From NCBI GenBank assembly GCA_963777605.1, contig CAVZRV010000008.1, positions 192,001 through 256,000 on the forward strand: a stretch of DNA of 64,000 bases, read 5' to 3'. Positions within the stretch are counted from its first letter, which is position 1; each line of letters opens with the position of its first letter. Under the pieces are notes generated by a model, which searched no databases, was not told the DNA's origin, and saw nothing but the letters and a program-made list of their open reading frames with translations. Of this stretch, positions 44,734-62,862 are shown piece by piece. The translations under genes were made by a program, and so were the position numbers. Origin of the DNA: an uncultured Acidobacteriota bacterium (GTDB lineage Bacteria; Acidobacteriota; UBA6911; RPQK01; JAPXNP01).

Positions 44734-46644
44734 ATGAATTCAACCAGCAACCTAATTGAGTCATCCGGTGCATCCTCTGGTCAGATTGAGACCAGACGAG
44801 TCAAAGAGCAGATCATCGAGATCGTCAGCGACTCCGGCGAGGGTGCGCAAACTTGCGGCCAGATGTTCGGGACCATTTGCGCAAAAATGGGGAACGGCGT
44901 CTGGACCGTTGAAATCATACCTGCCGAAATCGAGCCTCCCTATCGGTCGCGGGCCGGAGCGTCGGGGAACCGAATTCGTGTTGGTGCCAAGATGGTGACC
45001 AATGCCGGCGATGAAGCCGACGTGGTCATCGCCTTTAACGAACAGGTGCTTTACAGTCGAATCGACGTCGGTGCGCTTCGCCCCGGGACGATTGTTTTCC
45101 TGGATCAGGTCTGGAAGAACGATCCCTCTGAGGCTGTGCAGCGAGCATACGCCGATGCCTTTAAGGACTTCGAGGAGAAGGGTTACATCGTCATCGAGAT
45201 TCCTCTCCACGAAGAGACCCTCAATTTCACCGACGATCCCCGAAAGGGGAAGAACATGTGGGCGTTGGGGTTGCTCTGCTGCCTGTACAACTGCGACATG
45301 GATATCGCTCGCAGCGAGGTCCGTAAGAAATTCACGCGCAAGGGCGAGCAGGTGATCAACGTCAACCTGGAGATCCTCGAATCAGGCTACCAGTGGGCGC
45401 AGGAATTCATGACAGTTCGTTTCAGCGTCCCTCCTGAAATGCCTTCTACGCCGATGGTGGTCATGAACGGAAACCAGGCTGTCGGGCTGGGTGTCATGGC
45501 GGCCGGGATGGAACTTTGCGCCATGTACCCCATCACGCCGGCCACCTCCGCTTCCCATTACCTCTCGGCAGTGTTCAACACGGTTGGTGGATTCGTCCAT
45601 CAGGCCGAAGACGAAATCGCCGCAATAGGCTTCGCAATCGGCGCATCCTACGCCGGAAAAACCGCAGTGACCATCACCTCGGGCCCAGGCCTCGCACTGA
45701 AGACCGAGTTTTTGGGGCTGGCCGTGATGGCTGAAGTCCCCCTGGTGGTCGTGGTGGTTCAGAGGGGAGGCCCGTCAACCGGGTTGCCGACCAAGATTGA
45801 GCAGGGAGACCTGCTGGCGGTGCTCTTCGCCTCTCCAGGCGACAGCCCGAAAATCGTGATGGCCCCGGCGACGATCGAAGAGTGCTTTCACTTCATTGTC
45901 ACTGCCCGCAAGCTCGCCGAGGACTTTCGCGGTCCGGTCATGGTTCTGACCGACACGAACCTGGCGACCGGTCAGCAACCCTTCGCCCGCCCGAAGGTGA
46001 AGGAAGAGTGGCTTTCAGCGCCGATTGACCAGTCTGCCTGGGACAAGGAGATTGTTCCTTATGCGTGGGACCAGGAAACCGGTCTCTCCAGCCGGCCTCT
46101 TCCTGGACAGCGAGGTGGAGAGTATGTCCTGACGGGTCTGGCTCACGATGAGCGGAGCAAGGTTGCGTACGAGTCTGGGATCAACCAGCGGGCAATGGCG
46201 ATGCGGAGCCGCAAACTGGCGGCTTTGCACAAGAGTCTGAACCCGCCCGAAGTCTATGGCGACCAGGAAGGCGATTTGCTCCTGGTGACCTGGGGGTCAA
46301 CTCTCGGCGCCGCCCGGGAGGCAGTAGAACGGGTTCGAAATGACGGAGGAAATGTCTCGCACGTGCATTTGCGTTTCCTTTCGCCTCTCGAACCGGGTCT
46401 CAGGGAGATCTTCCGGCGGTTCAAACGGGTGCTGACGATTGAGATTAACTACTCCGACGATGTCGATGGAGTTTACATTACCGAGGAGAACAGACGCCGG
46501 TCACAACTGGCAAGGATATTGCGAGACGCGACCCTGGTGGATGTCGATTGCTGGTCGAAAGTACCGGGCAGCCCACTTCCTCCGGGCCGGATCGAGGAAG
46601 AGATTCGAAAGCGGCTGTCTTCGGCGAAGAAGGGACTGGATTGA
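44734..46644 (+). CDS. korA: 2-oxoacid:ferredoxin oxidoreductase alpha subunit (gamma-alpha fusion)
   Basis: SDSGEGAQ, IIPAEI, GKNMWALG, MNGNQA, YPITPA, QAEDEIAA, TSGPG, QRGGPSTGLPT, WGST; substrate specificity cannot be determined from sequence. Confidence 0.9.
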   Translation: MNSTSNLIESSGASSGQIETRRVKEQIIEIVSDSGEGAQTCGQMFGTICAKMGNGVWTVEIIPAEIEPPYRSRAGASGNRIRVGAKMVTNAGDEADVVIAFNEQVLYSRIDVGALRPGTIVFLDQVWKNDPSEAVQRAYADAFKDFEEKGYIVIEIPLHEETLNFTDDPRKGKNMWALGLLCCLYNCDMDIARSEVRKKFTRKGEQVINVNLEILESGYQWAQEFMTVRFSVPPEMPSTPMVVMNGNQAVGLGVMAAGMELCAMYPITPATSASHYLSAVFNTVGGFVHQAEDEIAAIGFAIGASYAGKTAVTITSGPGLALKTEFLGLAVMAEVPLVVVVVQRGGPSTGLPTKIEQGDLLAVLFASPGDSPKIVMAPATIEECFHFIVTARKLAEDFRGPVMVLTDTNLATGQQPFARPKVKEEWLSAPIDQSAWDKEIVPYAWDQETGLSSRPLPGQRGGEYVLTGLAHDERSKVAYESGINQRAMAMRSRKLAALHKSLNPPEVYGDQEGDLLLVTWGSTLGAAREAVERVRNDGGNVSHVHLRFLSPLEPGLREIFRRFKRVLTIEINYSDDVDGVYITEENRRRSQLARILRDATLVDVDCWSKVPGSPLPPGRIEEEIRKRLSSAKKGLD

Positions 46645-47600
46645 TGTACGGACTCAAGAAGGATTGGGTTCTTGAAAAACAGCCAAGGGTTTGTGTTCTG
46701 GAAGACTACCAGGGAGCGGAAGCGCGTTGGTGTCCGGGATGTGGAGACCATGCGGTACTGAACGCGGTGCAGCGGGTTGCGCGCGACCAGCAACTGCTTC
46801 CGGAGCGTACCGTGGTCGTTTCCGGGATCGGCTGCTCGAGCCGGTTCCCGCACTACATGAAGACCTACGGCTTTCACGGGTTGCACGGAAGAGCTCTGCC
46901 GGTGGCAACCGGAATCAAGAGCCGGCGGCCCGACCTGGAGATCTTCGTGATCACGGGCGACGGTGACTGTTGCGCTATTGGAACCGCTCACTGGATTCAT
47001 GCGATCCGTTACAACATGAACCTGACGGTCCTGCTCCTGGATAACAACATCTACGGGTTGACTAAAGCCCAGACCTCTCCGACGACTCGTACTTCCGAGC
47101 GGTCCAACACCCACCCGAAAGGATCATTTTTCGTTCCCTTGAACCCGATCTCTGTCGTTCTGGGAATCAGTAACGCGTCCTTCGTCGCTCAGACGGTGGA
47201 CTGGAACCCGCCTCATCTGTACGAGACGATCAAGGCAGCAAGGGAGCACAAGGGAACAGCTTTTGTCCGTGTTCTCCAGCGCTGTCCCCATTACACATCC
47301 CACGTGTTTGCAGAGGCACAGCACGACACCTCTCGCATCCTGTACCTCCAGCACCCCGACGGAATCAACGTTCCGGATCAGGTGGCGAAGACATTCAAGA
47401 ATCAGATGGTGCACGATCCCGCCAATTTGTCCGAAGCGCGCGATATCGCCGAGGAGCCGAACGAGGCGTTCCCGGTCGGCCTGATCTACTTGAATCGCCA
47501 TGCACAGCGATACGACGAGGTGACTTGTCAGGGGCTGGGGATGAGCCCGGTGAAGAAGATCGAAGCGATCGACAAGGCCCTCGATCGATTCATGGTCTAG
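46644..47600 (+). CDS. korB: 2-oxoacid:ferredoxin oxidoreductase beta subunit (TPP-binding)
   Basis: WCPGCGDH, SGIGCSSR, HGLHGRA, intact TPP motif GDGD...DNNIYG, LQRCP; TGATG coupling with the alpha subunit. Confidence 0.92.
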   Translation: MYGLKKDWVLEKQPRVCVLEDYQGAEARWCPGCGDHAVLNAVQRVARDQQLLPERTVVVSGIGCSSRFPHYMKTYGFHGLHGRALPVATGIKSRRPDLEIFVITGDGDCCAIGTAHWIHAIRYNMNLTVLLLDNNIYGLTKAQTSPTTRTSERSNTHPKGSFFVPLNPISVVLGISNASFVAQTVDWNPPHLYETIKAAREHKGTAFVRVLQRCPHYTSHVFAEAQHDTSRILYLQHPDGINVPDQVAKTFKNQMVHDPANLSEARDIAEEPNEAFPVGLIYLNRHAQRYDEVTCQGLGMSPVKKIEAIDKALDRFMV

Positions 47601-47627
47601 CCGCTGGGGGTTCGGCCGAGCGTCACA

Positions 47628-50600
47628 ATGGAAAACATTATGGGCAGGACGTCTGCCCGGGAGGCATCTCAGTTGAGAAGAACGCCCGAAATCGCGTCGG
47701 GAGAAGTGCTTGCTTCCGCTTTGGAGTGCGTTGAAGAACTCGAGCGGGCTATCTGCGGCGAGTCTGGGGTGGGGAGTCCCGCCTATGCGTTGGGACGGTC
47801 ACTTTCCGGACTCAGGTCGGCGGGTATCCGCACTGCGGAATGCCGGTGTCCAAATGGCCCCTCGAAGCCGACTCCCGTAGTCATTCACAGTCCGTCGTTC
47901 GCTGGCGTCGCGGAAGATGCCGGCTTGGTCCTCGTATCCGGATCGCACCAGGCGGCTCTCGAAAACTGCATCGTGGCCAGGAGGGTGGCCCAAACCCTGG
48001 GTATTCGTGTCGAGCACGTCATCGCACCCGGGACGGCTGACACCTTGGGTCTCGCTCGACTTCCAGAAACTGGGCAACTCGACAAACTCCTTGCCGAGTC
48101 CGGCGCCGATCCCTCACCGTCGGGCGATTTGGCCGCGGCGGTTGCTGCCGCGTTTGAAACGGTTCGAAGCATCGTGGGGAGCCGCACCTCGGCAGTCCGG
48201 TGCTCGGGCACGACGGACTCTCCGGTCTGTGTTGTAAGCCTGGGTGCCGGCAGTGCCTACTGCGATGAACTGGCTGAACTCCCGGGTGTTTCGATTCGCG
48301 CGATCACGGTAAACCAGTGTCGGCCGTTTCCGGCTGAAGATCTCAAGACTGCTCTTAAAGGTGCGGAGTCCGTGATTTTTGTCGCGGCGGAGGAGTCTCC
48401 TCTCCACCTCTGGTTTTCCAACGAGTTGAATGAACTGGGCGTTACTCCGGTGAAGACGGTGTTGCTTGAAGATCTTCCCGGTTCGGCTGAGGGCTTGGCT
48501 GGACTGCTTTCGGAGAAGCTTCCGCAGGAGCAACGCAAAGCTTTGGCGGCGGCACCGGCCAAGAGGGAAGTTCCCTCCCTGGCGATTGCAGTGCATCCAT
48601 CGGGATCCCGGGCCCGCAAGATCCTCCTGAGGACCGGCGCGACGTTGTGGACTGCACTGGGTCTCCAACCCGGCGATCTCGCCGTTGACGGGTCACGCGG
48701 CTGGACCGCGCTGCGGGCAGGCAAAGACTCTGCGGGACGTGAACTCGATCTGGTAGTTTTGTTCGAAGACCAATTGGCGGACTCAGCCCCGGACTTCGAA
48801 ATGATCCGCCGCGGTGGCGGGGTCATTCTGGTGGCCGGACAGAACCTGGAAGCTTCTTCCTCCTGGAGGAATCTGCCCAGGTCGATACGCACCCAGATCG
48901 AGCAGGGCAACCTTCGGCTCTGGTGGATCAATGTTTCGCAGGAGAATGGTTCGGAGTGCCGGCTCTTGTCCCGGGCGCTCGTGTCTGCGATGGCCTCCGC
49001 CCAAATGATTTCGGTCACCGGCCAGAGCCCGGTTTTTTCCCTTCACCAACTGGACCCGGGTGTGCTTGATTCCAGCGCCGGTCAAGAAATCGACTTCAGG
49101 ACCGGTGCCGGGCTTCCCGGAATGGAACGGCCGCGTGAGGATGCTGAAGCGGCGACGACGCTCCTCCGCCGACTGGTGGAATTTCACCTTGCCGGCACGA
49201 AGCCGGGAGATTCCGTAGCTGCTCCCCAGGTCAGTCCCATGATTCCGGCGGCAGTTCGTGCCGAGTCTCTCGGCGAATCCCATACCGTGTTTCCGTTCTA
49301 CCTTCCCGCTCCCTCTGCGGAGGACCGGCCGAGATCACTCGCGGAGTTATTCTCGGAGGCGCTGGGCAGTTCGGCAGCCACCACCGTGCTGGGAAGAGTG
49401 TTGCCGGATGTGCTGGCTGGACTGACGTCGGAGATTCCCGATGGCGGTTCTCTTTCGATGGATCGGCTGCGCCAGGCCGTAAAGGGACTTGAGGCCCGGA
49501 TTGATGTGAGCGCTGCCGGGAAGGTACAACTCTCGGGAGAACTGAAAACGGTTGAAGAGAGCTTGCCCGCGAAAGGTTCGGTGGTCGGTGTTGATGGCGA
49601 CACCTGGGCCGGCCTCTACCATTGGAGCCTCACACGGGAGCGCAGCGCGGTGCGCAACCGGCTGCTCTTGCAGGTCGAAAGGCTTCTGAACGATCTGGAA
49701 GCGCTCCTTCTCGCTGACGACAAGCTCAAGCCGGAATCGCGCACCGCACCCGCAATTCAGTCCTCGCTCGGGTTCGAGGGGACCCTGTTCATCAATGCAG
49801 GGCGCCTCTCGGGAATCATTCCCCCTGCGCAAGGGTCCCAGGGGCTTACGCCGGAACGGCGAGAGCGGGTCGCCGGGGTTTGTGCCAGCCTTCGCCGATT
49901 CATTGAAGAGTCCGCCCAGACCCCGGACCTGTACGTTTTTCAATCGGGTTCCCTGGAACACGAACTTGCCGGAGTAGTGACGGTGAGGTCTGAAGATCCA
50001 TTCGATGCCGCCCTGGGCCTGTTCGACGGTCTGGCCGCCAAGGTTATCGAAGCCATGAAGGCGGTTCGCGTGGGGAATCTGGAACTTTCGGGGGAATTCA
50101 ATCCGGAGGTCCACCAGCGGATTCTGGAAGGCTTCACCTGGGAGGCACTGAACGAAGATGAAGTGCTCCTGCTGCCGAGCATTCTGGTCGTGGAAAAGAT
50201 TACCGGACTGCCCCGTCGGACCCTTCCCGGGTTCCATCGACTGCTTCAGTCCGGCATGCCCATTCACGTGGCGGTCCTGATCGACGGGGCCGAGTGGTCG
50301 GATGACGACCTGCTGAAGCAGTTGAGGGGTGTTCTTCCGGATCCTGGCTACCTCGGCCTGGCTCACCGTGAAGCGTTCGTGCTGCAGTCGTCGGTCTGCC
50401 GTCCCGATCACCTGCTTGCCGGCCTCGGCCGCATGATGCGGGCACCCGGTCCGGGAGTCCTGGTGCTCGAATTTGCCAGTGCCCCTTCGGATTCGGCGCG
50501 AGCCTGGTCAGGTTGGCTTGCCGCCTGGCTGTCGCGTACGGTACCTTTTTACAGCTATGACCCGTGGAAGGGCGATTCCTGGGCGGACCGCTTCTCGGTC

Positions 50601-51509
50601 GACGGCAACCTCAATCCCGAGAGCGCCTGGGTAGTCACCGAGTTCGAGTGCCAGGATGCCAATGGGTCTGAACAGTCGGTTGCAGAGTCGATCACCTTCG
50701 CCCACTTTGCGGCCCTCGACAGTCGACTCCGGAGCCAGTTCTACGTTCTTCCCCACGAAATTGAGTCCGACCGGCTAATTCCGGTTGCGGAATATCTCGA
50801 TCGCCTCGACGAACTGCCCGAAGGCGCAGTCCCCTTCATATGGGTACTGGCGGACAAAGGTGAGAAAGTTCGTCGCGCCGTCATCACCCGGGACCTGTTG
50901 GCTGGATGCCGGGATCGCTCCCGTGCGTGGAGAATTCTCCAGGAGCTGGCCGGCCTGCGCAATGTTTACGTGGAGCGGGCGGTCAACACTGCTCTGGAAG
51001 AATCAGCTCGAAGGGCGCAAGTCGAACAGGATGCCGCCGTCAAGGCAGCACGCCGGGAAGGGGCGACGGAAGCGGTCGACAAGTTGGTCTCCGCACTTTC
51101 CAACCCCGATGCGCTTGTACGCGGTGCGGCTGTTGACACAGTTGCCCGACCGGCCGTAGCAATGCCGTCCACCGAATCGACTTCGGCGGCCCCCCAGGCG
51201 GAGGAACAATCTGAGCCCGCGGCTCCGGCGGCTGAACCGGAACCGGAAGAAGAAGAGCTTTCCGCCGAGCCCTATATCGATTCCTTTTTGTGCACGAGCT
51301 GCAACGACTGCATCAACCTCAACTCACGAATGTTCGGCTACAACAGTGACCGTCAGGCGTACATCGTGGATCCGTCGCAGGGCACGTTTTCGGAACTGGT
51401 TCGGGCGGCGGAATCGTGTCCGGCGAGTTGCATTCACCCGGGACTGCCTCGTCCCGGTGACAAAACCGCGACGCCTGAGCTCGTGGAACGAGCCAAAGCT
51501 TTTCAGTAG
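47628..51509 (+). CDS. Degenerate PFOR-like protein A with C-terminal single-cluster ferredoxin domain
   Basis: Remnants of PFOR domains I-III (SGSHQAALENCIVA, NQCRPFPAEDL), a TPP-domain-like region without GDG (LLLPSILVVE...AHREAFVLQS), a Pro/Glu/Ala linker, then CTSCNDC...ESCPASCIH. Confidence 0.7.
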   Translation: MENIMGRTSAREASQLRRTPEIASGEVLASALECVEELERAICGESGVGSPAYALGRSLSGLRSAGIRTAECRCPNGPSKPTPVVIHSPSFAGVAEDAGLVLVSGSHQAALENCIVARRVAQTLGIRVEHVIAPGTADTLGLARLPETGQLDKLLAESGADPSPSGDLAAAVAAAFETVRSIVGSRTSAVRCSGTTDSPVCVVSLGAGSAYCDELAELPGVSIRAITVNQCRPFPAEDLKTALKGAESVIFVAAEESPLHLWFSNELNELGVTPVKTVLLEDLPGSAEGLAGLLSEKLPQEQRKALAAAPAKREVPSLAIAVHPSGSRARKILLRTGATLWTALGLQPGDLAVDGSRGWTALRAGKDSAGRELDLVVLFEDQLADSAPDFEMIRRGGGVILVAGQNLEASSSWRNLPRSIRTQIEQGNLRLWWINVSQENGSECRLLSRALVSAMASAQMISVTGQSPVFSLHQLDPGVLDSSAGQEIDFRTGAGLPGMERPREDAEAATTLLRRLVEFHLAGTKPGDSVAAPQVSPMIPAAVRAESLGESHTVFPFYLPAPSAEDRPRSLAELFSEALGSSAATTVLGRVLPDVLAGLTSEIPDGGSLSMDRLRQAVKGLEARIDVSAAGKVQLSGELKTVEESLPAKGSVVGVDGDTWAGLYHWSLTRERSAVRNRLLLQVERLLNDLEALLLADDKLKPESRTAPAIQSSLGFEGTLFINAGRLSGIIPPAQGSQGLTPERRERVAGVCASLRRFIEESAQTPDLYVFQSGSLEHELAGVVTVRSEDPFDAALGLFDGLAAKVIEAMKAVRVGNLELSGEFNPEVHQRILEGFTWEALNEDEVLLLPSILVVEKITGLPRRTLPGFHRLLQSGMPIHVAVLIDGAEWSDDDLLKQLRGVLPDPGYLGLAHREAFVLQSSVCRPDHLLAGLGRMMRAPGPGVLVLEFASAPSDSARAWSGWLAAWLSRTVPFYSYDPWKGDSWADRFSVDGNLNPESAWVVTEFECQDANGSEQSVAESITFAHFAALDSRLRSQFYVLPHEIESDRLIPVAEYLDRLDELPEGAVPFIWVLADKGEKVRRAVITRDLLAGCRDRSRAWRILQELAGLRNVYVERAVNTALEESARRAQVEQDAAVKAARREGATEAVDKLVSALSNPDALVRGAAVDTVARPAVAMPSTESTSAAPQAEEQSEPAAPAAEPEPEEEELSAEPYIDSFLCTSCNDCINLNSRMFGYNSDRQAYIVDPSQGTFSELVRAAESCPASCIHPGLPRPGDKTATPELVERAKAFQ

Positions 51510-51530
51510 AAAAGCCAGGAGCGAATAAAA

Positions 51531-52382
51531 GTGGAACCAGTGATTACGGCTGCAATCATTATGACCGGTCTGGGTGTGGTCTTCGCTTCCATTCTGGCCA
51601 CCGCAGACCATCTCCTCCGAGTCGAAGAAGATCCGAGGCTCGAACAGGTGGAAGGCATGCTCCCGGGAAACAACTGTGGGGCATGCGGCGAGCCCGGTTG
51701 CCAGGCTTTCGCCGGACGTCTTGTCAGGGGGGAAGTCGCTCCTGGCAAGTGTACGGTCAGCACGGAAGAAGCCCTCGTCCAGATCGCCGGGTTTCTGGGC
51801 GTTGATGTCGGCGGTGAAGAGAAGCGTGTCGCACGGCTCAAATGTGCGGGCGGAGAGGGCCTGGTTGCCGATCTGGCAGCGTACAACGGCATTTCGTCCT
51901 GCAGGGGTGCCGTCGTGGTTGACGGCGGAGGACGTGCCTGTACATGGGGCTGCCTGGGACTGGGCGACTGTGAAACCGCCTGCACATTCGATGCGATTCA
52001 CATGAACTGGGAAGGGCTTCCGCAGGTCGATCCGAATCTTTGCACTGCTTGCGGCGACTGCGTGGGCGCCTGCCCCCTCGACCTTTTCACTGTCGTCCCC
52101 ATGTCTCACAATCCGTTCGTACAGTGCAATTCACCGCTGACCGGCGAAGCCGCCCGGTCGCGCTGCCCGGTCGCCTGTGACGCTTGCGGTCGTTGTGCGG
52201 CCGACGCGCCGGCAGGAGTCATCGAGATCGTAAATGGATTGCCGGTGATTCACTACGACCGCGAGGAGAAGCCGACGCAGAGATCCACCTGGCGATGCCC
52301 GACAGGTGCCATTACGTGGATTGAGGGCGAGCAGTTTTCCGAACCTCTAGTTCAAATCAGTAGGGAGCGAATCCGTGCGTAA
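51531..52382 (+). CDS. rnfB: Rnf complex subunit B
   Basis: N-terminal TM, LPGNNCGACGEPGC...C, RLKCAGG, CTWGCLGLGDCETACTFDAI, CTACGDCVGACP, CDACGRC...RCPTGAI. Confidence 0.9.
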   Translation: MEPVITAAIIMTGLGVVFASILATADHLLRVEEDPRLEQVEGMLPGNNCGACGEPGCQAFAGRLVRGEVAPGKCTVSTEEALVQIAGFLGVDVGGEEKRVARLKCAGGEGLVADLAAYNGISSCRGAVVVDGGGRACTWGCLGLGDCETACTFDAIHMNWEGLPQVDPNLCTACGDCVGACPLDLFTVVPMSHNPFVQCNSPLTGEAARSRCPVACDACGRCAADAPAGVIEIVNGLPVIHYDREEKPTQRSTWRCPTGAITWIEGEQFSEPLVQISRERIRA

Positions 52383-55300
52383 TCTCATATCCAAACTCCG
52401 GTTCGAGCGTTTAAGAAAGTTGTTGGGTGCCGGTGCAGCCGACCAGGGGAAAAAGACCGCAAAAACGGAACTTCTGGAGGTTCAGGAAGCTGTAGCTCTG
52501 GCCGAGGCCATGATCTGCGACATGATCGCGCATTGCTCCGGAGAAGAGTCTCCGGGATTCCAGGAGACCTCCAACGGATTCTCCTCGACCAATGCTTTTG
52601 GCCGACAGGTAGTGAGCGTCGATCTTCCCGGCGTGGCTGAGGGGATTGCCGCTGGTGCCGGTATGACCATGAGTGGGCTCCGATCTTCGGTCTTTCTTCC
52701 CGGTGACCACCTTTCCGAGGGTTATGCCCAGCTCCAATCGATCGCGAGCCGCTATGTCCCTTTGGTGTTGCACGCTGCCTTTCGTGAGGGTTTTGGCCCC
52801 GGCAGCAATCATGCCGGCTACCACGGGGCCGCGGACCTGGGCCTTTTCCAGGCAATGCCCCAGACGGTCCAGCAAGCCATCGACCTCACCTTTCTGTTCC
52901 ACTGGGTTGCCGAGCGGACGTTGATCCCCGGGCTCCTGGCCTTCGACCGCCGTGTCGCCGAGATGGCCGCGTTCCCGACGATCGATTCCATTCGGGAGTT
53001 CCTCGGTGCGCCCGATGCCTCGCTCGCGGCACCCAATCCGGCGCAACTGTTGTTGTTCGGACCAGAGCGACCGGGTGTCCCCGGTTGGTTCGACGTGGAC
53101 CGGCCGGTTTCCTTCGGCTCTCTCCAGGGGTCCAACGACGCGGCCAGCGCCGCGGTCGGCAGACAGGCCTTCTTTGCCGGGCACCTGCCCGAATTGCTCG
53201 ACGAGGGCATGGAGCGGCTCTCGAAATTGACCGGTCGTCCCCTCACCTTCCTGGAACAGGACGAGGTTGATCGGGCCGATTTCGTGCTCGTCACCCAGGG
53301 CAGCTCTTACGAAACCGCTCGGGCGGCCGCCTCCTACCTGAGACAGAGCAAGGGGCTGTCGGTTGGCGTCCTCGGCTTGACCTGGCTGCGTCCCTTCCCG
53401 TCGGCCCAACTCGCCCAGGCACTGCGTGGGAAGCGGGGCATTGCCGTACTCGAGTGTTCCTCGGTGGTGCTTTCCGACCAGGGGAGCCTGATGCGGGAGG
53501 TTCGCTCGGCGGCGGGCGCCCAAAGTGGCAACGCGACCTGGATTTCGGCCAGCTTTGGGCTTCACGGCCAACCGCTTTCGGCCGGCCAGGTCGTTGATTT
53601 GACCATGGAGCTGAAGGAAAAGAAGCCGCGCTCCAAAGTCTGGCTGGGGATCGTTTCCGGGCCCTCGAAGATCGGCGACTACCCCAAGCGGGAAAGCCTG
53701 GTGAAGTCCGTAGCGAGCGATTATCCCGAACTGACCCAGAACACGATTACCGGCCACGGCGTAGAAAAGCTAAGCGCCCAGGAACTGAAGACGGTTCAGT
53801 GGGTGGGTTCCTCCAGTCTGGAACCATCCGACGTCATCCGGCAACTCGTTGATCGTTGCTCCGACGTGGCGCGCGCCAAGATCAGGGGTTTCGGCTGGTA
53901 TCCGGAACCGGGCATCCTCTCGGTTCGTGTTTCGATGGGGCCCGACGAAATTCCGATTGCCGAGGCGGGAGCAGGCGTAGACGTGCTGCTTCTGGGACGC
54001 CTCGGCCTCGACCTGATCCACAACCCTCTCGCGGATCTCGGAGCAGGCGCCACGATCGTTGTTGAATCCGACCGTGCGGCCCAGGAAGTTTGGCATCTGA
54101 TGCCCGATTTCTGGAGATCAGAGGTGCGGCGCCTGAAATTGAAAATGTACAAGGTGGAGACGGGCTTCGACCAGTTGGCGGCGGCGGCCGGCGCAATCAT
54201 CTCGGGCTCGGTGGATCTCCCGTTCCCCGAGATTGAATGGAAGAACCTGGAAGACCCAGCGGGCGACCCGGATGACGTTCCGAAGCTCGTCCGTCGGGCC
54301 GGGGACGCCGGTTCGAGTTACAGCAACCTGCCCCGGTTCTGGGGTGAGGTCATGCAGCCGAAACGGGGCGGGATTTCCGAGAATTTTCCAGATCCCCTGG
54401 TTACCGCGGACGCTGTTCCACCGTACACTGCGGCACTGGCGCGCCCGCGGGGAACGGCGCTGCCATCTATGCCGGTTCTCGACCCCGAGAAGTGTACCGG
54501 TTGCGGTCACTGCTGGCCGGTCTGCCCCGATTCCGCGATTGGTGCCACCCTGCTGAGCCTGCAGGACTACCTGGATGTGGCGGCGGATCAGACGGGGGTT
54601 GAAGGGAAAGTGGCGGCCGCCCTCAAGCGCGCCCACCGTCCCATTGCGGCCCGCGTCGCAGTGCTGATTCGCGAGCGCAACCTGAAGACGGTCCCTGAGG
54701 AAATCTGGCTGGAGGCCTTCGCATCGGTGATCGGCAAAATTTCGGTGCCGGATGGAGAAATGCCCCAGTACAAAGCCGCCTTCCAGGCGACTGCAGAGAT
54801 GGCCCACCGCCTGTCTCCGGTAGTCACCGAGCCGCTCTATTCCAAGCTGGAGTCGGAAAGCCAAAGGTAGCGGCCAGATTCTCATTTTGGCCTTTAACCC
54901 GGACGCCTGCCAGGGATGCCAGCTCTGCATCATGAGCTGTCCCGAATCGGCCCTGCTGGCGATGGACCGGGCCGGAACGGTGAAGGAGGATGCCCGGGAA
55001 GGATGGAAAGTCTGGGAGAATCTTCCGGATACTCCGGGTAACGTCATCGAGAAGGTGGAGGCCGACCTGGAACTCGGCCAGCTGGCCGCCCGTTTTCTGA
55101 GCCGCCACAGTTCCCAGGTCCAAGCCGTCGGGAGTTTCGGCGAGCCCGGTTCGGGCGAACGGCTGGCCTGCCGGATTGTGAGTGGAATCGTCGAGTCCCA
55201 GCTCCAGAAACGGCTCGCCGACCAGGCGGCCGAAGCATCGAAACTGGCCGGCCAGTTGCGGGACCAGGTGCAGGGACAATTGGCGAAAGGTCTCACCGAG

Positions 55301-56683
55301 GCCGACCCGAAAGCAATCCAGTCGGCACTCGAGAGCCTGCCTCGCCACCGGGTGAGCCTGAGCGACCTGAGCGAACGCCTCTCCTCGTTTGGAAAGGCGG
55401 TCTCTCTCGATCCCGTCAAGACTCTTCGACTCGCGCAGACCGCGCATGACCTCGAAACGGAAGCCTGGCAGTTGACCGAAGGGCCCAACCGGCTGGGCCG
55501 TTCGCGGTTCAGCGTGGTTATCGTCAGCCATCGAATCGCCCGTTGGGCGGGCCGGTTCCCCAACCATCCCTACAACGCGCCCCTGGTCGTTGAACCTTCT
55601 CCGGAAGGCGCAGGTCTCGCGGTGGGGCTGGCCGAGGCGGCTGCACTGAAGCATGTCGACCGGGTCCGTACCTATCGTCGTGCGAACCTCTACCTGGAGA
55701 ATCCTTCGGATCTTCCGGGGCGGCTCGTCGACCTGGAAAACCTGACCTGGAGTGATCTGACCGCTGAAGAGCGGGCTACTTGCCCGCCGCTGCTCGTGTT
55801 TGCCGATGAGAGTGCCTTGAGGCGGCAGGGCCTTGGAGCCCTGGGCAGCCTGCTTTCGAGCAAGATCCCCGTAAAACTCATTCTCCTCGACACCCGTTTC
55901 GTGAATCTGGCAACCCCGGAACCGGCCCTGTTTGGTCTCGGTTTCCCGGGGGCCTTCGTTCTCAGTGGTTCACTTGGAGCGCTGGTACACCTCGAGAACA
56001 ACCTTGAAGAGGCCATCAAATTCTCCGGTCCGGCCGTGATCCACATTCACGTTCCGATTCCGCAGGAACAGGGTTTCGAACCCTCCAAGACGATTGAGAG
56101 AGCGCGGTTGGCCGTGCAGGCCAGGGTTCAGCCGCTGTTCGTCTTCAATCCCGCAGCAGAAGGTGCGTTCGGTCTTCGGGTCTCTGTCGAAGGCAATCCC
56201 GGGATAGATTCTCCCTGGGGCGGTTGCGATCCGATCCAGTGGGCCTTCGAAGAGGAACGGTTCAAACCGTTCTTCGTTCCCCTGTCCGAGGATGTCCCAT
56301 CCACCGACTGGAGGGAATATGTTGGACTGGCGGAAGAAGATCGCCGGGACACGGTACCTTCCTACGAGGATGCTGGCGGCAACACCTGGAAGATCGACCG
56401 TCGGCTGGCGGCGTTCGCCGAACGTCGAAGTTCGATTTGGGAGATCTACCAGGAAATCGGAGGCATCGCCAGTCCTCACCTGGATCGGCTTCGCTCGGAA
56501 GTCGAGCAGGAAGTCACGGACCAGAGCCGGGCGGAGTTCGAGGAAACGAAGGCGGGATACGAAGCGCGCATCAGCCAACTGGAACAGGAATCCGATACCA
56601 GGCTCGCCGGACAATTGCGAGAGCGTCTCCTGGTTCTGGCCGGGTTCGGCTCCAAAACCCATACGGATGACACTAATGAGTAG
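52375..56683 (+). CDS. Degenerate full-length PFOR-like protein B (about 1435 aa) with two CxxCxxCxxxCP motifs; split by a 1-nt frameshift at AAA 54863-54865
   Basis: PFOR domain order is visible (SGLRSSVF, YVPLVLH, TVQQAIDL, TWLRPFP, SFGL); CTGCGHCWPVCP at 54493 and CQGCQLCIMSCP at 54908; removing one A gives a continuous ESQGSGQILILAFNPDAC. Confidence 0.75.
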
Positions 56684-58013
56684 CGCAGTAACTGCTGAGA
56701 CAGCAACCAAGACTTTCCGTCACGGGGTTCACCCGCCGGAGAGAAAGGACTCGACTGAAGGCCGCCCGATTGAACGGGTTCCCTTCGGGAAGGAGTTCAC
56801 GCTTCCGCTCTCCCAACACATCGGTGCGCCTTCGGTTGCAATCGTGAAGCCGGGTCAGCGCGTGGTCCGGGGGGAGACGATCGCCAATCCGGGCGGATTC
56901 GTCTCCACCTGCCTCCACGCTCCCGTGACCGGAACGGTGACGGCGGTAGAACCCCGCCTGCACCCGAACGGAAAGATGATGCCTGCGATCGTGATCGAGG
57001 CCGATCCCTTTTCCTCTCAGAGAGTCGTTCCTCACAAGGTTCCTGCTCCTGAAGGCCTGAGCAATGGCGACCTGGTCAAGCAGGTCCAGATGTCCGGGCT
57101 GGTCGGACTCGGGGGAGCCGCCTTTCCAAGCCACGTCAAGCTCTCGCTTCCCGAGAAGCGCCGGATCGAGTTTGTGGTGATCAACGGCTGTGAGTGTGAG
57201 CCCTATCTGACCTGTGATCACCGAGTTATGGTGGAGCGCGCGGAGTTGGTCATCCGCGGCACCCAGATCATGATGAACAACCTGGGTGCCAATCGAGCCT
57301 ACATCGGGATCGAGTCAAACAAGCCGGACGCCGCCGAGGCATTGAAAGCCGTTGCCCCGTCAAACATTGAAGTCGTTGTGGTCCAGGTCAAGTATCCCCA
57401 AGGCGCCGAGAAGATGCTGATCGACGCAATTCTCGAGAAAGAGGTCCCGAGCGGGGGCATTCCCCTCGACATCGAAATTTTGACCAATAACGTCGGGACG
57501 ACGGCGGCCCTGGCCGACTGGTTTGACCGCGGCATTCCGCTTCTGGAGCGGGTAGTCACGGTAACCGGACCCGGAATCCCCTACCCGCGAAATCTGCTGG
57601 TCCCGCTCGGCACCCCAGTCTCGGCGATCGTGGACTACTGCGGCGGATTGTCCGCCGAAACCCGTCAGGTGATCATGGGTGGTCCTATGATGGGAATGGC
57701 CCAGAAGACACTGGACGTGCCGGTAATGAAGGGCACATCGGGAATTCTGGCCTTGACCGAAGTATTTCAGGCAGTCGCCCAGGAATATCCCTGCATTCGC
57801 TGTGCCCGCTGTCTCGAGGCCTGTCCCATGTTTCTTAATCCAACACGGTTGGCCCACCTCGCCAAGTTCGAGCGCGTCGATGATTTGAAGGATTATCACG
57901 TTCTCGACTGCTTCGAGTGCGCTTCCTGTTCATTTGTCTGCCCGTCGAATATCCCGCTGGTGCAGTGGATTCGGATGGGTAAGGCGGCGGTTCGAGAGGC
58001 ACAGAAGAAATGA
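56676..58013 (+). CDS. rnfC: Rnf complex subunit C
   Basis: FRHGVHPPERK, LSQHIGAP, HAPVTG, GLVGLGGAAFPSHVK, NGCECEPYLTCD, KYPQGAEK, MGGPMMG, CIRCARCLEACP, CFECASCSFVCP. Confidence 0.96.
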   Translation: MSSAVTAETATKTFRHGVHPPERKDSTEGRPIERVPFGKEFTLPLSQHIGAPSVAIVKPGQRVVRGETIANPGGFVSTCLHAPVTGTVTAVEPRLHPNGKMMPAIVIEADPFSSQRVVPHKVPAPEGLSNGDLVKQVQMSGLVGLGGAAFPSHVKLSLPEKRRIEFVVINGCECEPYLTCDHRVMVERAELVIRGTQIMMNNLGANRAYIGIESNKPDAAEALKAVAPSNIEVVVVQVKYPQGAEKMLIDAILEKEVPSGGIPLDIEILTNNVGTTAALADWFDRGIPLLERVVTVTGPGIPYPRNLLVPLGTPVSAIVDYCGGLSAETRQVIMGGPMMGMAQKTLDVPVMKGTSGILALTEVFQAVAQEYPCIRCARCLEACPMFLNPTRLAHLAKFERVDDLKDYHVLDCFECASCSFVCPSNIPLVQWIRMGKAAVREAQKK

Positions 58014-59041
58014 GTATCGCGCGCAAGCACGACCTGACACTTTCCACTTCACCCTTTCTCCACGCCCAGTCCACGACGCCGCGGATCATGGCCGACGTGC
58101 TGTTGGCGACGGTCCCGGTGATCCTGGCTGCGTGCTGGTTTTTCGGACTGGGCATTCTGCTCGTGGTCGCAGCTGCCACAGCCGGGGCGGTCTTTACCGA
58201 GTGGATCTTTACCCGGGGGCAACACCCCAGCCCTCTAGTCGACAACAGCGCGTTGCTCACCGGAGTTCTTTTGGGATTGGTATTGCCGCCGAGCTTTCCA
58301 CTCTGGATGGCCTTTCTCGGCGGAGTGGCCGCAATCGGGCTGGGCAAACTGATCTGGGGTGGACTCGGACAGAATGTTTTCAATCCGGCGCTGGTAGGAA
58401 GGGCCTTCCTCCAGGCGTCGTTTCCGACCGCCATTACCAGCTGGACGGCCCCGTCTCAGGGGCTCTTCTCCGTGCCCGCGAAGATCTTCACGGTTCCGCT
58501 CATGCAATCGACGGCGGACACGGTGTCGGCGGCGACTCCACTGGGTTTGTTCAAATTCTCCAGCGAGTTCACCGATGTCGTGTCGCTTTTTATCGGAAAG
58601 ATCGGCGGCTCAATTGGCGAGACGAGTGCCCTGATTCTGATCCTGTGCGGTCTTTGGCTCGGATTCAAGCGAATTTTCGACTGGCGGCTCCCGGCCAGCA
58701 CCCTTTTGTCCGTCGCCGTATTCAGTGGAATCTTCTGGGCCTGGAACCCGAGCAAATTTCCGAGTCCTCTGTTCATGTTGTTTTCCGGCGGAATTCTGTT
58801 TGCCGCGGTATTTATGGTGACCGATCCAGTCTCGACTCCGACTACCCGTAAGGGCGCCTGGATATTCGGGATTGGTGTCGGATTCCTGGTTGTGATCATC
58901 CGGCTCTTCGGCGGACTCCCGGAAGGTGTCATGTACGCGATTCTCTTGATGAACGCGGTGAACCCTTATATCAATCATTACACTCAGCCTCGCATTTTCG
59001 GCGGGGCCAAGAAGAAGTTGGCCGGAGCCGAAGGGAAATGA
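58010..59041 (+). CDS. rnfD: Rnf complex subunit D
   Basis: SPFLH...IMADV, DNSALLTG, GGLGQNVFNPA, FMN site SAATP, GSIGETS, MVTDPVS, PEGVMYAILLMN. Confidence 0.96.
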   Translation: MSIARKHDLTLSTSPFLHAQSTTPRIMADVLLATVPVILAACWFFGLGILLVVAAATAGAVFTEWIFTRGQHPSPLVDNSALLTGVLLGLVLPPSFPLWMAFLGGVAAIGLGKLIWGGLGQNVFNPALVGRAFLQASFPTAITSWTAPSQGLFSVPAKIFTVPLMQSTADTVSAATPLGLFKFSSEFTDVVSLFIGKIGGSIGETSALILILCGLWLGFKRIFDWRLPASTLLSVAVFSGIFWAWNPSKFPSPLFMLFSGGILFAAVFMVTDPVSTPTTRKGAWIFGIGVGFLVVIIRLFGGLPEGVMYAILLMNAVNPYINHYTQPRIFGGAKKKLAGAEGK

Positions 59042-59098
59042 TGATGCGCTCCAGTAGTTGCACAGGTTGGACGCGCTGATTTGAGAGGAGCGTGAATA

Positions 59099-59740
59099 AT
59101 GAGTTCAGCAAAACGACCAGGACCGGCACGGCTGATTCTGACCCTCGGGGGGGCCGGATTCATCTCGGGGTTGCTCCTGGTAACCGTATACCTGGCCACC
59201 AAGCCGATCATCGAGCGAAACCAGGCCGAAGCTCTGGAGGCCGCAATCTATCGAGTTGTCCCGGGATCAACTACGCGAAAGGCATTTGAGCTGAAAGACG
59301 GCAAGCTGGTTGCCGTTGAGTCGAGCGGAAACGCGCTGCCTTCCGGCGAGGTGATCTACGGGGCCTACAATGACCAGGACCAGTTGCTCGGCTATGCCAT
59401 CCCGACCGAAGGAGCCGGTTTCCAGGACACCATCAAGCTTATCTACGGATTTGATCCCCACGACCAGAAGATTGTTGGAATGGAAGTCCTGGACAGTCGG
59501 GAGACTCCGGGACTTGGCGACAAGATCAGCAAGGATCAGCACTTCCTGGACAACTTCAAGGACCTTGCCGTGGAACCAGAGGTGGTCGCGGTGAAATCGG
59601 GGACAAAGACCAAGCAGAATGAAGTCGACTCGATCAGCGGTGCCACGATTTCGTCCAAGGCCGTAGCCAAGATTATCGAACAGGCCAATCTCCGCTACCT
59701 TCCGGCTATTAACGCGGCCCCACAGGAGCAATCGAAATGA
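59099..59740 (+). CDS. rnfG: Rnf complex subunit G (FMN-binding)
   Basis: N-terminal TM, GFQDTI, ETPGLG, covalent FMN motif DSISGATISS. Confidence 0.93.
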   Translation: MSSAKRPGPARLILTLGGAGFISGLLLVTVYLATKPIIERNQAEALEAAIYRVVPGSTTRKAFELKDGKLVAVESSGNALPSGEVIYGAYNDQDQLLGYAIPTEGAGFQDTIKLIYGFDPHDQKIVGMEVLDSRETPGLGDKISKDQHFLDNFKDLAVEPEVVAVKSGTKTKQNEVDSISGATISSKAVAKIIEQANLRYLPAINAAPQEQSK

Positions 59741-60378
59741 GTACGCGAGAGAGGTTATACGACGAGACGGTCAAGGGATTCTGGAAAGAGAACCCGGTTT
59801 TCGTACAGTTGCTGGGCCTGTGTCCTGCCCTGGCCGTCACGAATTCGGCAATAAACGGGCTCGCCATGGGCTCGGCTACAACGTTCGTTCTGGTGGGTTC
59901 CAGTTTCCTGGTTGGATTGCTGAGGAACCAGATCCCCAAACAGGTCCGGATTACCAGCTTTATCGTTATCATCGCGACCTTTGTAACTGTTGCCGACCTG
60001 ACCCTCCAGGCCATGTTGCCCACCGTTCACAAAGAACTGGGTGCGTTCATCGCGCTGATCGTCGTCAACTGCATCATCCTTGGCCGCCAGGAAGCGTTTG
60101 CGTCGCGCAACCCGCTCGGCCTGGCCTTAGGAGATGCCTTCGGAATGTCTCTGGGGTTCACCTTTGCCCTGCTGACCGTGGGCAGCATCCGTGAAATCCT
60201 TGGATCCGGATCCCTGTTCGGTTATGACCTCTTCGCGGGCCACTTCGAGCCCTGGGTCATCATGATCCTGCCCCCGGGCGGATTTCTCACCCTGGGAGTG
60301 CTGCTCATAATCTTTGCGCAGGTCAAGAAGAACCGCGCCCTCAAGGCTGCCATGCGACTCGAGAAGGAGGCCGCATAA
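59737..60378 (+). CDS. rnfE: Rnf complex subunit E
   Basis: ENPVFVQLLGLCPALAVT, LIVVNCIILGRQEAFA, IREILGSG, ILPPGGF. Confidence 0.96.
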   Translation: MSTRERLYDETVKGFWKENPVFVQLLGLCPALAVTNSAINGLAMGSATTFVLVGSSFLVGLLRNQIPKQVRITSFIVIIATFVTVADLTLQAMLPTVHKELGAFIALIVVNCIILGRQEAFASRNPLGLALGDAFGMSLGFTFALLTVGSIREILGSGSLFGYDLFAGHFEPWVIMILPPGGFLTLGVLLIIFAQVKKNRALKAAMRLEKEAA

Positions 60379-60956
60379 TGGGAAACTACCTCTGGATTTT
60401 CGTCTCGGCGGCGATTATCAACAACTTCACCCTGGCCTACTTTCTCGGGCTCTGTCCATTTTTCGGAGTCAGCAAGAAGATTGAGACCGCCTTTCGACTC
60501 GGCCTTGCGAACATCTTTGTCATGGTGATCACGTCGGTTTGCGCCTGGGCGCTGAACACGTTCGTGCTCCCCTACGCGCCATATCTCCGGCTGATGACCT
60601 TCATTGTGGTTATCGCGAGTACCGTTCAGTTCGTGGAGATGGTGATCAAGAAGCTGAGCCCCGCACTGTTCAAGGCGCTTGGGATCTACCTTCCCCTGAT
60701 CACGACGAACTGTGCCATCCTGGCGCTGGCGCTGTTTCAGACCAACCGGGGCTACGGGTTCGGCGAAGGCCTCGTGTTCGCGGTCGGTGCCGGCGTTGGC
60801 CTGACCCTCGCTCTGGTTCTCATGGCGGGTGTCCGGGAGGAAGCCGAACTCTCGACTATCCCTGACGTTCTGCAGGGCGCCGGCATGGCTTTTCTGATTG
60901 CCGGGATCCTCTCCATGGCCTTCATGGGCTTTGCCGGGCTTTTCAGCGGAGCTTAG
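60378..60956 (+). CDS. rnfA: Rnf complex subunit A
   Basis: NNFTLAYFLGLCPFFGVS, VQFVEM, LGIYLPLITTNCAIL, AGILSMAFMGF. Confidence 0.96.
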   Translation: MGNYLWIFVSAAIINNFTLAYFLGLCPFFGVSKKIETAFRLGLANIFVMVITSVCAWALNTFVLPYAPYLRLMTFIVVIASTVQFVEMVIKKLSPALFKALGIYLPLITTNCAILALALFQTNRGYGFGEGLVFAVGAGVGLTLALVLMAGVREEAELSTIPDVLQGAGMAFLIAGILSMAFMGFAGLFSGA

Positions 60957-60960
60957 CAAG

Positions 60961-61167
60961 ATGTGGAGCTACCTGATCGTCGCTGTTCTCCTGGGGCTTG
61001 CCTGCATCGTTTTCGGACTCCTGCGGGCGGACGTCAGCGAGGACGAAGATAGCCACTGTGAACCGGGTGATTGCCACGGCTGCTCGGAACACCACCGGTG
61101 CGGAGATGACTTTTCGTTCCATCAGCCGATGACTGATCCGAGGGAACTGTTTCGAAACCGAAAGTGA
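60961..61167 (+). CDS. Small membrane-anchored Cys/His-rich protein (68 aa) closing the Rnf operon
   Basis: MWSYLIVAVLLGLACIVFGLL TM helix followed by HCEPGDCHGCSEHHRC; starts 4 nt after the rnfA stop. Confidence 0.6.
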   Translation: MWSYLIVAVLLGLACIVFGLLRADVSEDEDSHCEPGDCHGCSEHHRCGDDFSFHQPMTDPRELFRNRK

Positions 61168-61209
61168 TTTCCACGGCCGCCTGACTCGGCGCCCGTGCGG
61201 GAGATGACA

Positions 61210-61605
61210 CTAGCCGTTGACCAGATATTCGTCGATGAGGGCCTTGGCTTCGGCGATCTGGTCGGTTCCTATTGCCACGAAGGCGAAGTCGTGCTCCCGA
61301 CGGATGAATCGGACACTCCTCAGGTCGATGTTGGCCTCTTTGAGGCGCATCGCAACTTTAGCCAGTGCGCCCGGCTCATCTTTGAGCCGAACCAGCAGTG
61401 CGTCCTCGGTGATTGCCTGAAATCCGGCGTCGCGGAGACTTTCGAGTGCGTCGTTGTAGCGATCGACGGTCAGTTCTACGATGGCGGTGTCTTGAACTTC
61501 CTCAGCGTCGATCGTCTCAATGTTGATCCCCCGCGCAGCCAGCACAGCAGAGATATCCGCCAACAGCCCGGCACGGTTCGCGGTGACCACCGCTATCGAT
61601 CTCAT
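61210..61605 (-). CDS. Tandem ACT-domain protein
   Basis: NRAGLLADISAVLAARGINI and DEPGALAKVAMRLKEANIDL; AGGAG SD. Confidence 0.9.
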   Translation of the reverse strand: MRSIAVVTANRAGLLADISAVLAARGINIETIDAEEVQDTAIVELTVDRYNDALESLRDAGFQAITEDALLVRLKDEPGALAKVAMRLKEANIDLRSVRFIRREHDFAFVAIGTDQIAEAKALIDEYLVNG

Positions 61606-61629
61606 TTCGTTCTCCTGTCTGCTTCTTTC

Positions 61630-62805: not shown

Positions 62806-62845
62806 CCTCGGCTCCTTCCGAATTCACTGGTTCGATCCCAGCATA

Positions 62846-62862
62846 GCCGATTTCAAATCGGC
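62846..62862. promoter_or_regulatory. 17-bp palindrome GCCGATTT-C-AAATCGGC abutting a minus-strand -10 (TATGCT, 62840-62845)
   Basis: Perfect 8-bp inverted repeat in the divergent region between the decarboxylase and the symporter. Confidence 0.5.

Follow-up and report, generated by a model that had tools for sequence, protein, structure and literature searches.

Why should an operon for the Rnf complex, a central energy converter of anaerobes that is thought to be fed by freely diffusing ferredoxin, also encode two giant relatives of pyruvate:ferredoxin oxidoreductase (PFOR) that lack the motifs of catalysis? The question is raised by a 64,000-nucleotide (nt) stretch of DNA from an uncultured Acidobacteriota bacterium, hereafter the window, whose numbering is used throughout. 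Open reading frame (ORF) calls together with Pfam and NCBIfam searches gave the gene order korA-korB-bigA-rnfB-bigB-rnfCDGEA, followed by a gene for a small Cys-rich membrane protein, all on the + strand between positions 44734 and 61167. The names bigA, for the gene of a 1293-residue protein located 5' of rnfB, and bigB, for the PFOR-like gene between rnfB and rnfC, were coined here. A first-pass annotation of the sequence had described eleven co-oriented genes with tight junctions. Their order and strand hold, and the number of ORFs is twelve because bigB is split in two. The ORF coordinates also bear out the tight packing: korA and korB meet at a TGA/ATG with one shared base (46642–46646), bigB overlaps both rnfB (52375–52382) and rnfC (56676–56683) by 8 nt, ATGA junctions lie at 58010 and 59737, and base 60378 is common to rnfE and rnfA. 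As judged from alignments and motifs, the arrangement is real and conserved, and the proposal that the giants are dead PFORs is not only confirmed but sharpened. The best explanation, to which we give about an even chance, is a conserved and co-inherited module in which the ferredoxin side of Rnf has been built out with two PFOR-derived pseudoenzymes acting as a relay between KorAB and RnfB.

The catalytic part of the block appears to be confined to its first two genes. The korA gene (44734–46644; the longest ORF starts at TTG 44728) encodes the alpha subunit of a two-subunit 2-oxoacid:acceptor oxidoreductase with the domain order III-I-II, as recognized by TIGR03710 (531.4 bits, cut-off 482.75) and Pfam POR, POR_N, and PFOR_II. 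The korB gene (46644–47600) encodes the beta subunit, predicted to bind thiamine pyrophosphate (TPP) and one [4Fe-4S] cluster (Pfam TPP_enzyme_C, E 1e-26; TIGR02177, 239 bits, below the cut-off of 261.9). The best solved relative of KorA is 6n2n_A (E 1.4e-86), and KorB is related to 5b48_B (E 4.2e-51) and 6n2n_B (E 3e-50). KorA carries YPITP at residue 267 and QAEDE at residue 292, and KorB carries CPGC (30), GIGC (61), GDGD (105), DNNIY (133), and CPHY (214), which include the TPP motif and the four Cys for one cluster expected of a two-subunit 2-oxoacid:ferredoxin oxidoreductase (OFOR). KorAB is thus of the same type as 6n2n and 5b48, with all cofactor motifs present. The claim that KorAB alone keeps catalytic motifs withstood inspection, as YP[IV]TP, GDG, and NTGG are missing from bigA and from both pieces of bigB.

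The 6n2n enzyme is presumably the 2-oxoglutarate enzyme of Magnetococcus. This relatedness, together with one related block containing sucCD, suggests 2-oxoglutarate as the substrate of KorAB. In that block, located on a Gammaproteobacteria-type metagenome contig, sucC and sucD for succinyl-CoA (coenzyme A) synthetase lie between bigB and rnfC (L054, 14714–17190; the labels G, L, and P denote sampled genomes, loci, and proteins, with G000 being the window's own genome), which supports succinyl-CoA as product or substrate. According to passages of a 2026 review of PFOR diversity, two-subunit enzymes do not have domain V and carry one cluster only (PMC13768988). With one cluster and no domain V, two-subunit OFORs must pass their electrons to a separate carrier.

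The bigA gene (47628–51509) encodes a catalytically dead, full-length paralog of long PFORs. A profile of nine bigA orthologs aligned with a profile of five long PFORs collinearly over 1214 columns (hhalign, probability 100%, E 2.4e-95) and matched the solved PFOR 1b0p (E 4.3e-17). Over its last 500 residues, bigA shares 33% identity (E 6e-68) with the ends of PFORs of about 1,680 residues. A word-based search with the whole of bigA returned four long PFORs and no orthologs, which reflects the limit of word-based searching. Both Cys motifs of domain V, the Cys residues of the proximal cluster, and the GDG...NTGGQ stretch are missing in all 14 orthologs, so that bigA falls short of the cofactor set of active PFORs throughout and the homology is one of fold and order only. 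The sole Pfam match is a C-terminal Fer4_13 domain (residues 1217–1270; 30.7 bits, cut-off 24.5), and there was no NCBIfam match. This single-cluster, ferredoxin-like domain (51270–51509) matches ferredoxin I (1dax_A) and contains the Cys set CxxCxxC...CPxxC (C1222, C1225, C1228, C1264, and C1268), which is invariant in the nine-sequence alignment and present in 14 of the 14 orthologs. It is the best-conserved part of bigA, with 60–67% identity to distant families as compared with about 30% elsewhere in the protein. A low-complexity linker rich in Pro, Ala, and Glu (residues ~1155–1214; 51090–51269) precedes the domain. Among 13 bigA proteins and five long PFORs, 68–92% of the 60 residues before the ferredoxin domain are P, A, E, S, T, G, D, or Q, one further bigA having been left out because it lacks the anchor motif used for measuring. 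The composition is kept and the sequence is not, a signature of a flexible tether. The first-pass annotation had noted the absence of a stand-alone ferredoxin gene from the operon. There is indeed no free gene, yet bigA itself ends in a ferredoxin domain.

The bigB gene kept a different part of the same ancestor. Its N-terminal piece (52375–54870, 831 residues) comprises degenerate PFOR domains I, II, and III with the first Cys motif of domain V (Pfam POR_N, PFOR_II, and Fer4), and its C-terminal piece (54887–56683, 598 residues) comprises the second Cys motif (Pfam Fer4 at residues 2–23), a dead domain VI, and a helical C-terminal extension. Solved PFORs are matched (6cin_A, E 1.6e-16 for the N-terminal piece), as are the alpha and beta subunits of oxalate oxidoreductase, and residues 355–421 of the C-terminal piece give a PorB-like match. 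With the model of active PFOR, TIGR02176, bigB reaches 63 bits where the cut-off is 911, and the TPP stretch, the ligands of the proximal cluster, and YPITP are all absent: GGDGA...DTQVYSNTGGQ of long PFOR is lost, SCMGCGEK is replaced by SFGEPGSGER, and TPC by VPI or VPL. The two CxxCxxCxxxC(P) motifs of domain V are retained, CTGCGHCWPVCP at 54493–54528 in the N-terminal piece and CQGCQLCIMSCP at 54908–54943 in the C-terminal piece, on either side of the frame break described below. Both are kept in 13 full-length orthologs in addition to the two window pieces. Across 87 representatives of bigB-type clusters, GDG...N.GG and YP[IV]TP never occur and CxGC[GS]E occurs once, while both domain-V motifs are complete in 81. 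The N-termini of bigB-type proteins carry a basic amphipathic motif (MRNLISKLRFERLRKLL at 52375–52430 of the window; ...ALRLLRQILG and ...WLRRLRG elsewhere), which is lacking in long PFORs with a complete catalytic set, and which may be a docking or membrane-binding helix.

The loss of one cluster is seen in six of the 87 representatives (P0042, P0044–P0047, and P0053). In the bigB proteins of genus g8 (L016 and L020), motif 1 has lost its first three Cys and motif 2 its last, all four by joint replacement, and what remains is the CP of motif 1 with the three leading Cys of motif 2. In a two-cluster ferredoxin fold, the four lost residues bind one and the same cluster, which we take, from the Desulfovibrio africanus enzyme, to be the medial one. 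To judge by these residues, one cluster is cleanly removed in g8 and the surface (distal) cluster is kept, as makes sense for a protein without a proximal cluster. The joint loss of exactly one ligand set implies that these Cys residues behave as real cluster ligands and are selected as clusters.

This pattern bears on the idea that bigA and bigB stand outside the main electron path, as regulators or sensors of 2-oxoacids, CoA, or TPP-like ligands held in the degenerate pocket, as assembly factors of Rnf, or as a new TPP-independent enzyme. Though dead, domains I, II, and VI persist under constraint, and the amphipathic basic motif is specific to bigB, as such a role could explain. However, the parts kept most strictly are the Fe-S motifs of the bigB-type representatives and the ferredoxin domain of bigA, the paired loss in g8 speaks for clusters under selection, and the N-terminal domains of bigA are wholly missing in several families. 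We regard a role outside electron transfer as improbable.

The likely parent of both giants is of a type that the window's own genome still encodes. A long PFOR of 1688 residues is encoded on another contig (G000:C7, L049:2130–7196), with the domains POR_N, PFOR_II, and POR, two domain-V motifs, TPP_enzyme_C, and a C-terminal Fer4_13. Other long PFORs (P0004–P0007 and P0097–P0114) have about 1,620–1,760 residues, and the TPP motif is present in 17 of the 18 examined. These single-chain enzymes share with both bigA and bigB the domain order, the domain-V insert, and the helical C-terminal extension, and with bigA only the linker and the Fer4_13 domain. The insert between the two domain-V motifs, of about 135 residues, is common to bigB and long PFOR. 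Whereas long PFOR keeps YPITP, both domain-V motifs, the proximal Cys residues, and GDG...NTGGQ, bigA and bigB each keep a part of the Fe-S set. The claim that both giants derive from PFOR and lack the TPP motifs is therefore upheld by the profile alignments, with the motifs absent from 14 of 14 bigA orthologs and from every bigB-type representative, and the proximal cluster is lost as well. By collinearity, bigA and bigB are full-length derivatives of a long PFOR of about 1,700 residues with a tethered ferredoxin. By their motifs, retention is complementary, with bigB keeping only the two domain-V cluster motifs and bigA only the tethered ferredoxin domain.

Is the arrangement more than an accident of one genome? 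Conserved synteny was found in nine families of Acidobacteriota and on contigs labelled Gammaproteobacteria. Full-length bigA orthologs are present in 12 of 15 genomes of the window's family, and ten loci of the family have the same order wherever the contig reaches, except that korAB is unlinked in genus g8. Since the same order recurs in relatives whose bigA is only about 27–38% identical, it is not due to chance. All ten genome contig records found by a search with the bigB alignment are titled as metagenome-assembled genomes (MAGs) of Acidobacteriota. Of 401 genomes drawn evenly from the phylum, 13 matched the N-terminal 791 residues of bigA and 51 had an RnfC scoring above its cut-off. 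Among 39 further rnfC loci inspected, 34 were plain, three had a bigB-type gene 5' of rnfC (G172, G270, and G204, the last being dead by its motifs), and two had a PFOR with all catalytic motifs, here called live. A PFOR-type insert thus occurs in 17 of the 51 Rnf-bearing genomes, from nine families. Outside the phylum, bigB-type proteins of 1538–1582 residues belong to clusters that NCBI names "Gammaproteobacteria bacterium", and six metagenome contigs found through one such protein have korA-korB-bigA-rnfB-bigB-rnfCDGEA as far as each contig reaches. Look-ups in a protein atlas gave only PFOR-like clusters with sparse taxonomic records, which pointed to Gammaproteobacteria and Myxococcota and were not used as evidence.

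The phylogeny of RnfC agrees with this distribution. In a maximum-likelihood tree of 57 sequences, the 23 RnfC proteins from loci with a PFOR-type insert form one clade (support 100/99), and the 34 plain ones stand apart, by which the PFOR-inserted Rnf lineage is of single origin. The Gammaproteobacteria-type RnfC proteins nest beside an acidobacterial one (100/99), which suggests either transfer or mis-binning. The two loci with live PFORs pair inside the inserted clade on long branches (95/90). In one of them, the second rnf locus of its genome (L106; G308:C51, 1292–7024, − strand), a 1617-residue long PFOR with every catalytic motif (YPITP and GDG...NTGGQ; Pfam TPP_enzyme_C, POR, and a tethered Fer4_13) is inserted between rnfB and rnfC, with neither kor genes nor bigA. 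The other (L093; G133:C11, 1391–11133, − strand) has korA-korB, a 358-residue mini-bigA, rnfB, a live long PFOR, and rnfC. The mini-bigA has no ferredoxin domain and matches columns 748–956 of the bigA profile (probability 91.5%). L093 is possibly an intermediate between the live-PFOR form and the form with dead paralogs. A FastTree tree of the PFOR family resolved three clades, namely bigA, long PFOR including the L106 enzyme, and bigB. Because this tree was rooted at its midpoint only, the proposed order of events relies on the argument that an enzyme, once dead, could not plausibly win back its whole set of sites.

Purifying selection acts on both large paralogs, with ratios of nonsynonymous to synonymous substitution (dN/dS) well below 1. 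In the closest pair (G002 and G014), dN/dS was 0.18 for bigA, 0.06–0.08 for bigB, and 0.03–0.06 for korA, korB, rnfB, rnfC, and rnfD; dS exceeds 1 in every pair, which makes these values rough, yet neither gene drifts neutrally.

The window's own bigB requires separate consideration, as its reading frame is broken. The first frame, from 52375, halts at a TAG stop (54868–54870) after 831 residues through a +1 frame change. The second frame, open from 54824 onward, contains ...AKGSGQILILAFNPDAC, which matches KGSGRLLLLAFNPDAC in relatives. In 13 relatives bigB is one uninterrupted ORF of 1049–1444 residues (1416–1437 in six of the window's family), and in the protein alignment the two window pieces abut, a few residues short. 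When the DNA was aligned with that of three relatives, one extra base appeared near 54850–54862, so the break spans 54850–54870. None of the public contigs sharing words with the stretch bridges 54808–54860. A comparison with G002 gave dN/dS of 0.11 downstream and 0.13 upstream of the break, which means that the break is either very recent or an assembly error in a MAG of 53 contigs.

One may ask, then, whether the module is decaying in this genome, with bigB a pseudogene and the block a relic. The extra base and the premature stop are what decay would produce, TTG 54887 has no convincing ribosome-binding site ahead of it, the ATG that follows in frame (54932) falls inside the Cys motif, and bigB is broken in G004 too. 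Against decay, the piece downstream of the break is about as constrained as the one upstream, all other genes of the block are intact, and a one-base assembly error is plausible in a 53-contig MAG with 5.7% contamination; several such frame breaks occur in the locus of another genome, G012. We consider decay very improbable. In G004, a one-contig MAG, the block is split inside bigB into two pieces about 875 kb apart (L015 and L107; G004:C1, ~4.87 Mb and ~4.00 Mb), and bigB residues ~570–914, which include both Cys motifs, were not found at either piece. The split is due either to a rearrangement or to misassembly. Two metagenome gene calls that extend bigB, which came to light in a search of longer proteins with RnfB, were rejected as evidence: P0140 (1653 residues, one contig), a full RnfB-like part followed by bigB, and P0172 (1792 residues, same 90% cluster, one contig), which has a bigB-like start and continues about 420 residues past the usual end of bigB. 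The unfused form of this cluster, with 1375 residues, occurs on seven contigs. Where neighbouring genes overlap as narrowly as these do, by a few bases, one wrong base is enough to join them, and both calls are likely artefacts.

What might the block do? In the relay that we favor, KorAB would be the sole catalyst, interconverting 2-oxoglutarate plus CoA and succinyl-CoA plus CO2, and would have, like other two-subunit OFORs, one [4Fe-4S] cluster without a built-in ferredoxin domain. Electrons would enter Rnf at RnfB. The bigA and bigB proteins would serve as a dedicated relay, probably a pseudo-symmetric heterodimer at RnfB that resembles the dimer of the parent PFOR. The tethered ferredoxin domain of bigA, on its swinging linker, would shuttle electrons among the KorB cluster, the surface cluster of bigB, and RnfB, with bigB supplying one or two surface clusters. 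The whole would constitute a membrane-coupled 2-oxoglutarate:NAD+ oxidoreductase that uses little or no free ferredoxin, and in reverse it would be a 2-oxoglutarate synthase driven by the ion gradient. The sequences themselves show the gene content, the motifs lost and kept, the descent from long PFOR, conservation, selection, and the single origin of the PFOR-inserted Rnf lineage; that the proteins bind one another, how electrons travel between them, and which way the reaction runs is what we infer. The first-pass annotation had given the two dead proteins the role of scaffold and Fe-S wire. The retained Fe-S sites fit a relay, but one of a tethered ferredoxin and surface clusters rather than of a fixed wire.

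Several observations weigh against such a relay. Broken bigB genes in both the window and G004 would mean that bigB is perhaps dispensable, unless both are assembly faults. SucA was found in four of the five genomes tested, the window's genome included (G007 had no SucA match), which makes KorAB an alternative rather than the sole 2-oxoglutarate route, one that may run in either direction. In genus g8, korAB does not adjoin bigA, and a korA ortholog with 69–70% identity lies elsewhere, in G007 about 0.9 Mb from the rnf block. The length of bigA varies from 755 to 1367 residues, and to 358 in L093, because N-terminal domains have been lost in several families, and bigA evolves about three times faster than its neighbours. 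The insert is missing from 34 of the 51 Rnf-bearing genomes of the phylum sample, and the high dS values noted above belong on the same side. A complex prediction for KorB with bigA residues 640–1180 scored 0.01 against a mark of 0.32 and speaks neither for nor against binding.

Some of these observations would equally suit a shared function without a stable supercomplex, in which bigA and bigB form a soluble, dedicated "giant ferredoxin" diffusing between KorAB and RnfB, and the operon provides co-regulation and matched amounts. In g8, korAB is unlinked and its ortholog nevertheless retained. RnfB, inspected for a clade-specific docking domain, is collinear with plain RnfB proteins and has no extra domain. 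No transmembrane segment was noted in bigA or bigB, for which no dedicated scan was made, and free ferredoxins normally serve both OFORs and Rnf. A pair of 2,700 residues is, however, a costly substitute for a ferredoxin of 60 unless its size serves some purpose. In addition, bigB overlaps rnfB and rnfC by 8 nt each, and RnfC proteins from operons of this type branch apart from the others, in keeping with co-adaptation. A diffusing carrier is in our opinion unlikely, though a serious competitor. A physical supercomplex of KorAB and Rnf is a reasonable, if conjectural, inference. We put forward more tentatively, as a doubtful but attractive extension, that the block represents a distinct class of Rnf with a 2-oxoacid oxidoreductase as an integral peripheral arm, membrane-bound, ion-translocating, and free of soluble ferredoxin, in which a live long PFOR with its tethered ferredoxin would first have been inserted between rnfB and rnfC, as two loci still have it, and then duplicated and inactivated, leaving a bigA:bigB heterodimer that docks KorAB. 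Such an arm would make the complex a 2-oxoglutarate:NAD+ oxidoreductase or, driven by the gradient, a 2-oxoglutarate synthase. Were the arm real, complex I, which absorbed a dead formate-dehydrogenase-like module, would offer a parallel.

The remaining genes of the block are those of a complete Rnf complex, with all six subunit families encoded together. The rnfB gene (51531–52382) has clear Pfam FeS (PF04060) and Fer4 domains, with 182.5 bits for NF005503 and 67.5 bits for TIGR01944, slightly under the cut-off of 68.7. The NCBIfam cut-offs are exceeded by RnfC (56676–58013; TIGR01945, 526.9 bits, cut-off 245.95), RnfD (58010–59041; TIGR01946, 327.9 bits, cut-off 207.05), RnfG (59099–59740; TIGR01947, 107.8 bits, cut-off 102), and RnfE (59737–60378; TIGR01948, 230.3 bits, cut-off 213.4). 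RnfA (60378–60956) stays slightly under its cut-off (TIGR01943, 225.7 against 229.3 bits) and is clear by Pfam Rnf-Nqr (185.8 bits). The last gene (60961–61167) encodes 68 residues with one transmembrane helix and a Cys/His-rich tail. An earlier start had been placed at 60898, and ATG 60961 is the most likely one. A similar ORF lies 3' of rnfA in eight of 13 loci checked, including two Gammaproteobacteria-type contigs. The protein matches Pfam FeoB_associated (PF12669) weakly (E 0.004, 17.8 bits, below the cut-off of 27). It presumably resembles NqrM, for which no model match appeared in the family scans, and may be a maturation factor of that kind. Downstream, a 570-residue ORF on the + strand (61195–62907) was rejected as a gene, being antisense to an ORF resembling pyridoxal-phosphate-dependent decarboxylases (61630–62805, − strand) and without a family match. 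It is thus unlikely to be a gene. Position 61167 marks the end of the block. Rfam at the gathering threshold gave no match over 43000–64000, and a scan for promoters and terminators stayed at or below shuffle expectation. About 60 kb past the end of the window, a second RnfC-like match (G000:C8:316419–317735; 200 bits, below the cut-off) was observed, and comparable matches exist in four relatives, one in each; an NqrA-type subunit belonging to a different complex is a possible identity.

How does the block compare with known systems? It has all six subunits in common with the canonical RnfABCDGE complex, the family models match, and RnfB matches the solved 7zc6 and 9eri. The order rnfB-CDGEA is itself typical of many bacteria. 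Canonical Rnf operons, however, have no PFOR-type gene between rnfB and rnfC, and here a second paralog and korAB stand upstream as well. Unlike 6n2n and 5b48, which use free ferredoxin, korAB is normally followed here by the linker-borne ferredoxin of bigA. OFORs wired to NAD(P)+ are known in the five-subunit phenylglyoxylate:NAD+ oxidoreductase PadEFGHI and in the pyruvate:NADP+ oxidoreductase of Euglena, in which a 2-oxoacid oxidoreductase is coupled to a pyridine nucleotide through a built-in electron module, as is proposed here. Those enzymes are soluble and conserve no energy, whereas the proposed partner here would be the ion-translocating Rnf and the adaptor a pair of pseudoenzymes; the Pad models gave only weak matches in the family scans of the window.

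Literature searches found no biochemical or structural work on the PFOR-inserted type of Rnf. In the genome paper on the Solemya velum symbiont, PFOR genes are placed between rnfB2 and rnfC2, and pyruvate is proposed as the donor (Dmytrenko et al., 2014; PMC4287430). The rnf2 operon described there thus has PFOR between rnfB and rnfC, as do the Gammaproteobacteria-type contigs found here. The relevant passages of that paper treat the gene as an active PFOR and make no mention of the loss of the catalytic site, of a second paralog, or of korAB. In the 2026 review (PMC13768988), term look-ups met Rnf only among general consumers of ferredoxin and in the title of one reference, and they brought up nothing on C-terminal extensions, extra domains, longer forms, or Acidobacteriota.

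One consequence for the genomes concerned is a correction of annotation, as genes of the bigA and bigB types are currently labelled PFOR or 4Fe-4S binding protein; the names in databases include "pyruvate-ferredoxin/flavodoxin oxidoreductase", "4Fe-4S binding protein", and "hypothetical protein". The series from plain Rnf, through Rnf with a live PFOR, to Rnf with dead paralogs and KorAB would document, in a rare case open to dating, how an enzyme became a subunit for structure or electron transfer. The module is carried by Acidobacteriota that are abundant in soils and sediments and by Gammaproteobacteria that oxidize sulfur. If the proposed relay is true, a donor enzyme wired to the pump would change the view of the coupling efficiency and reversibility of 2-oxoacid oxidation and carboxylation.

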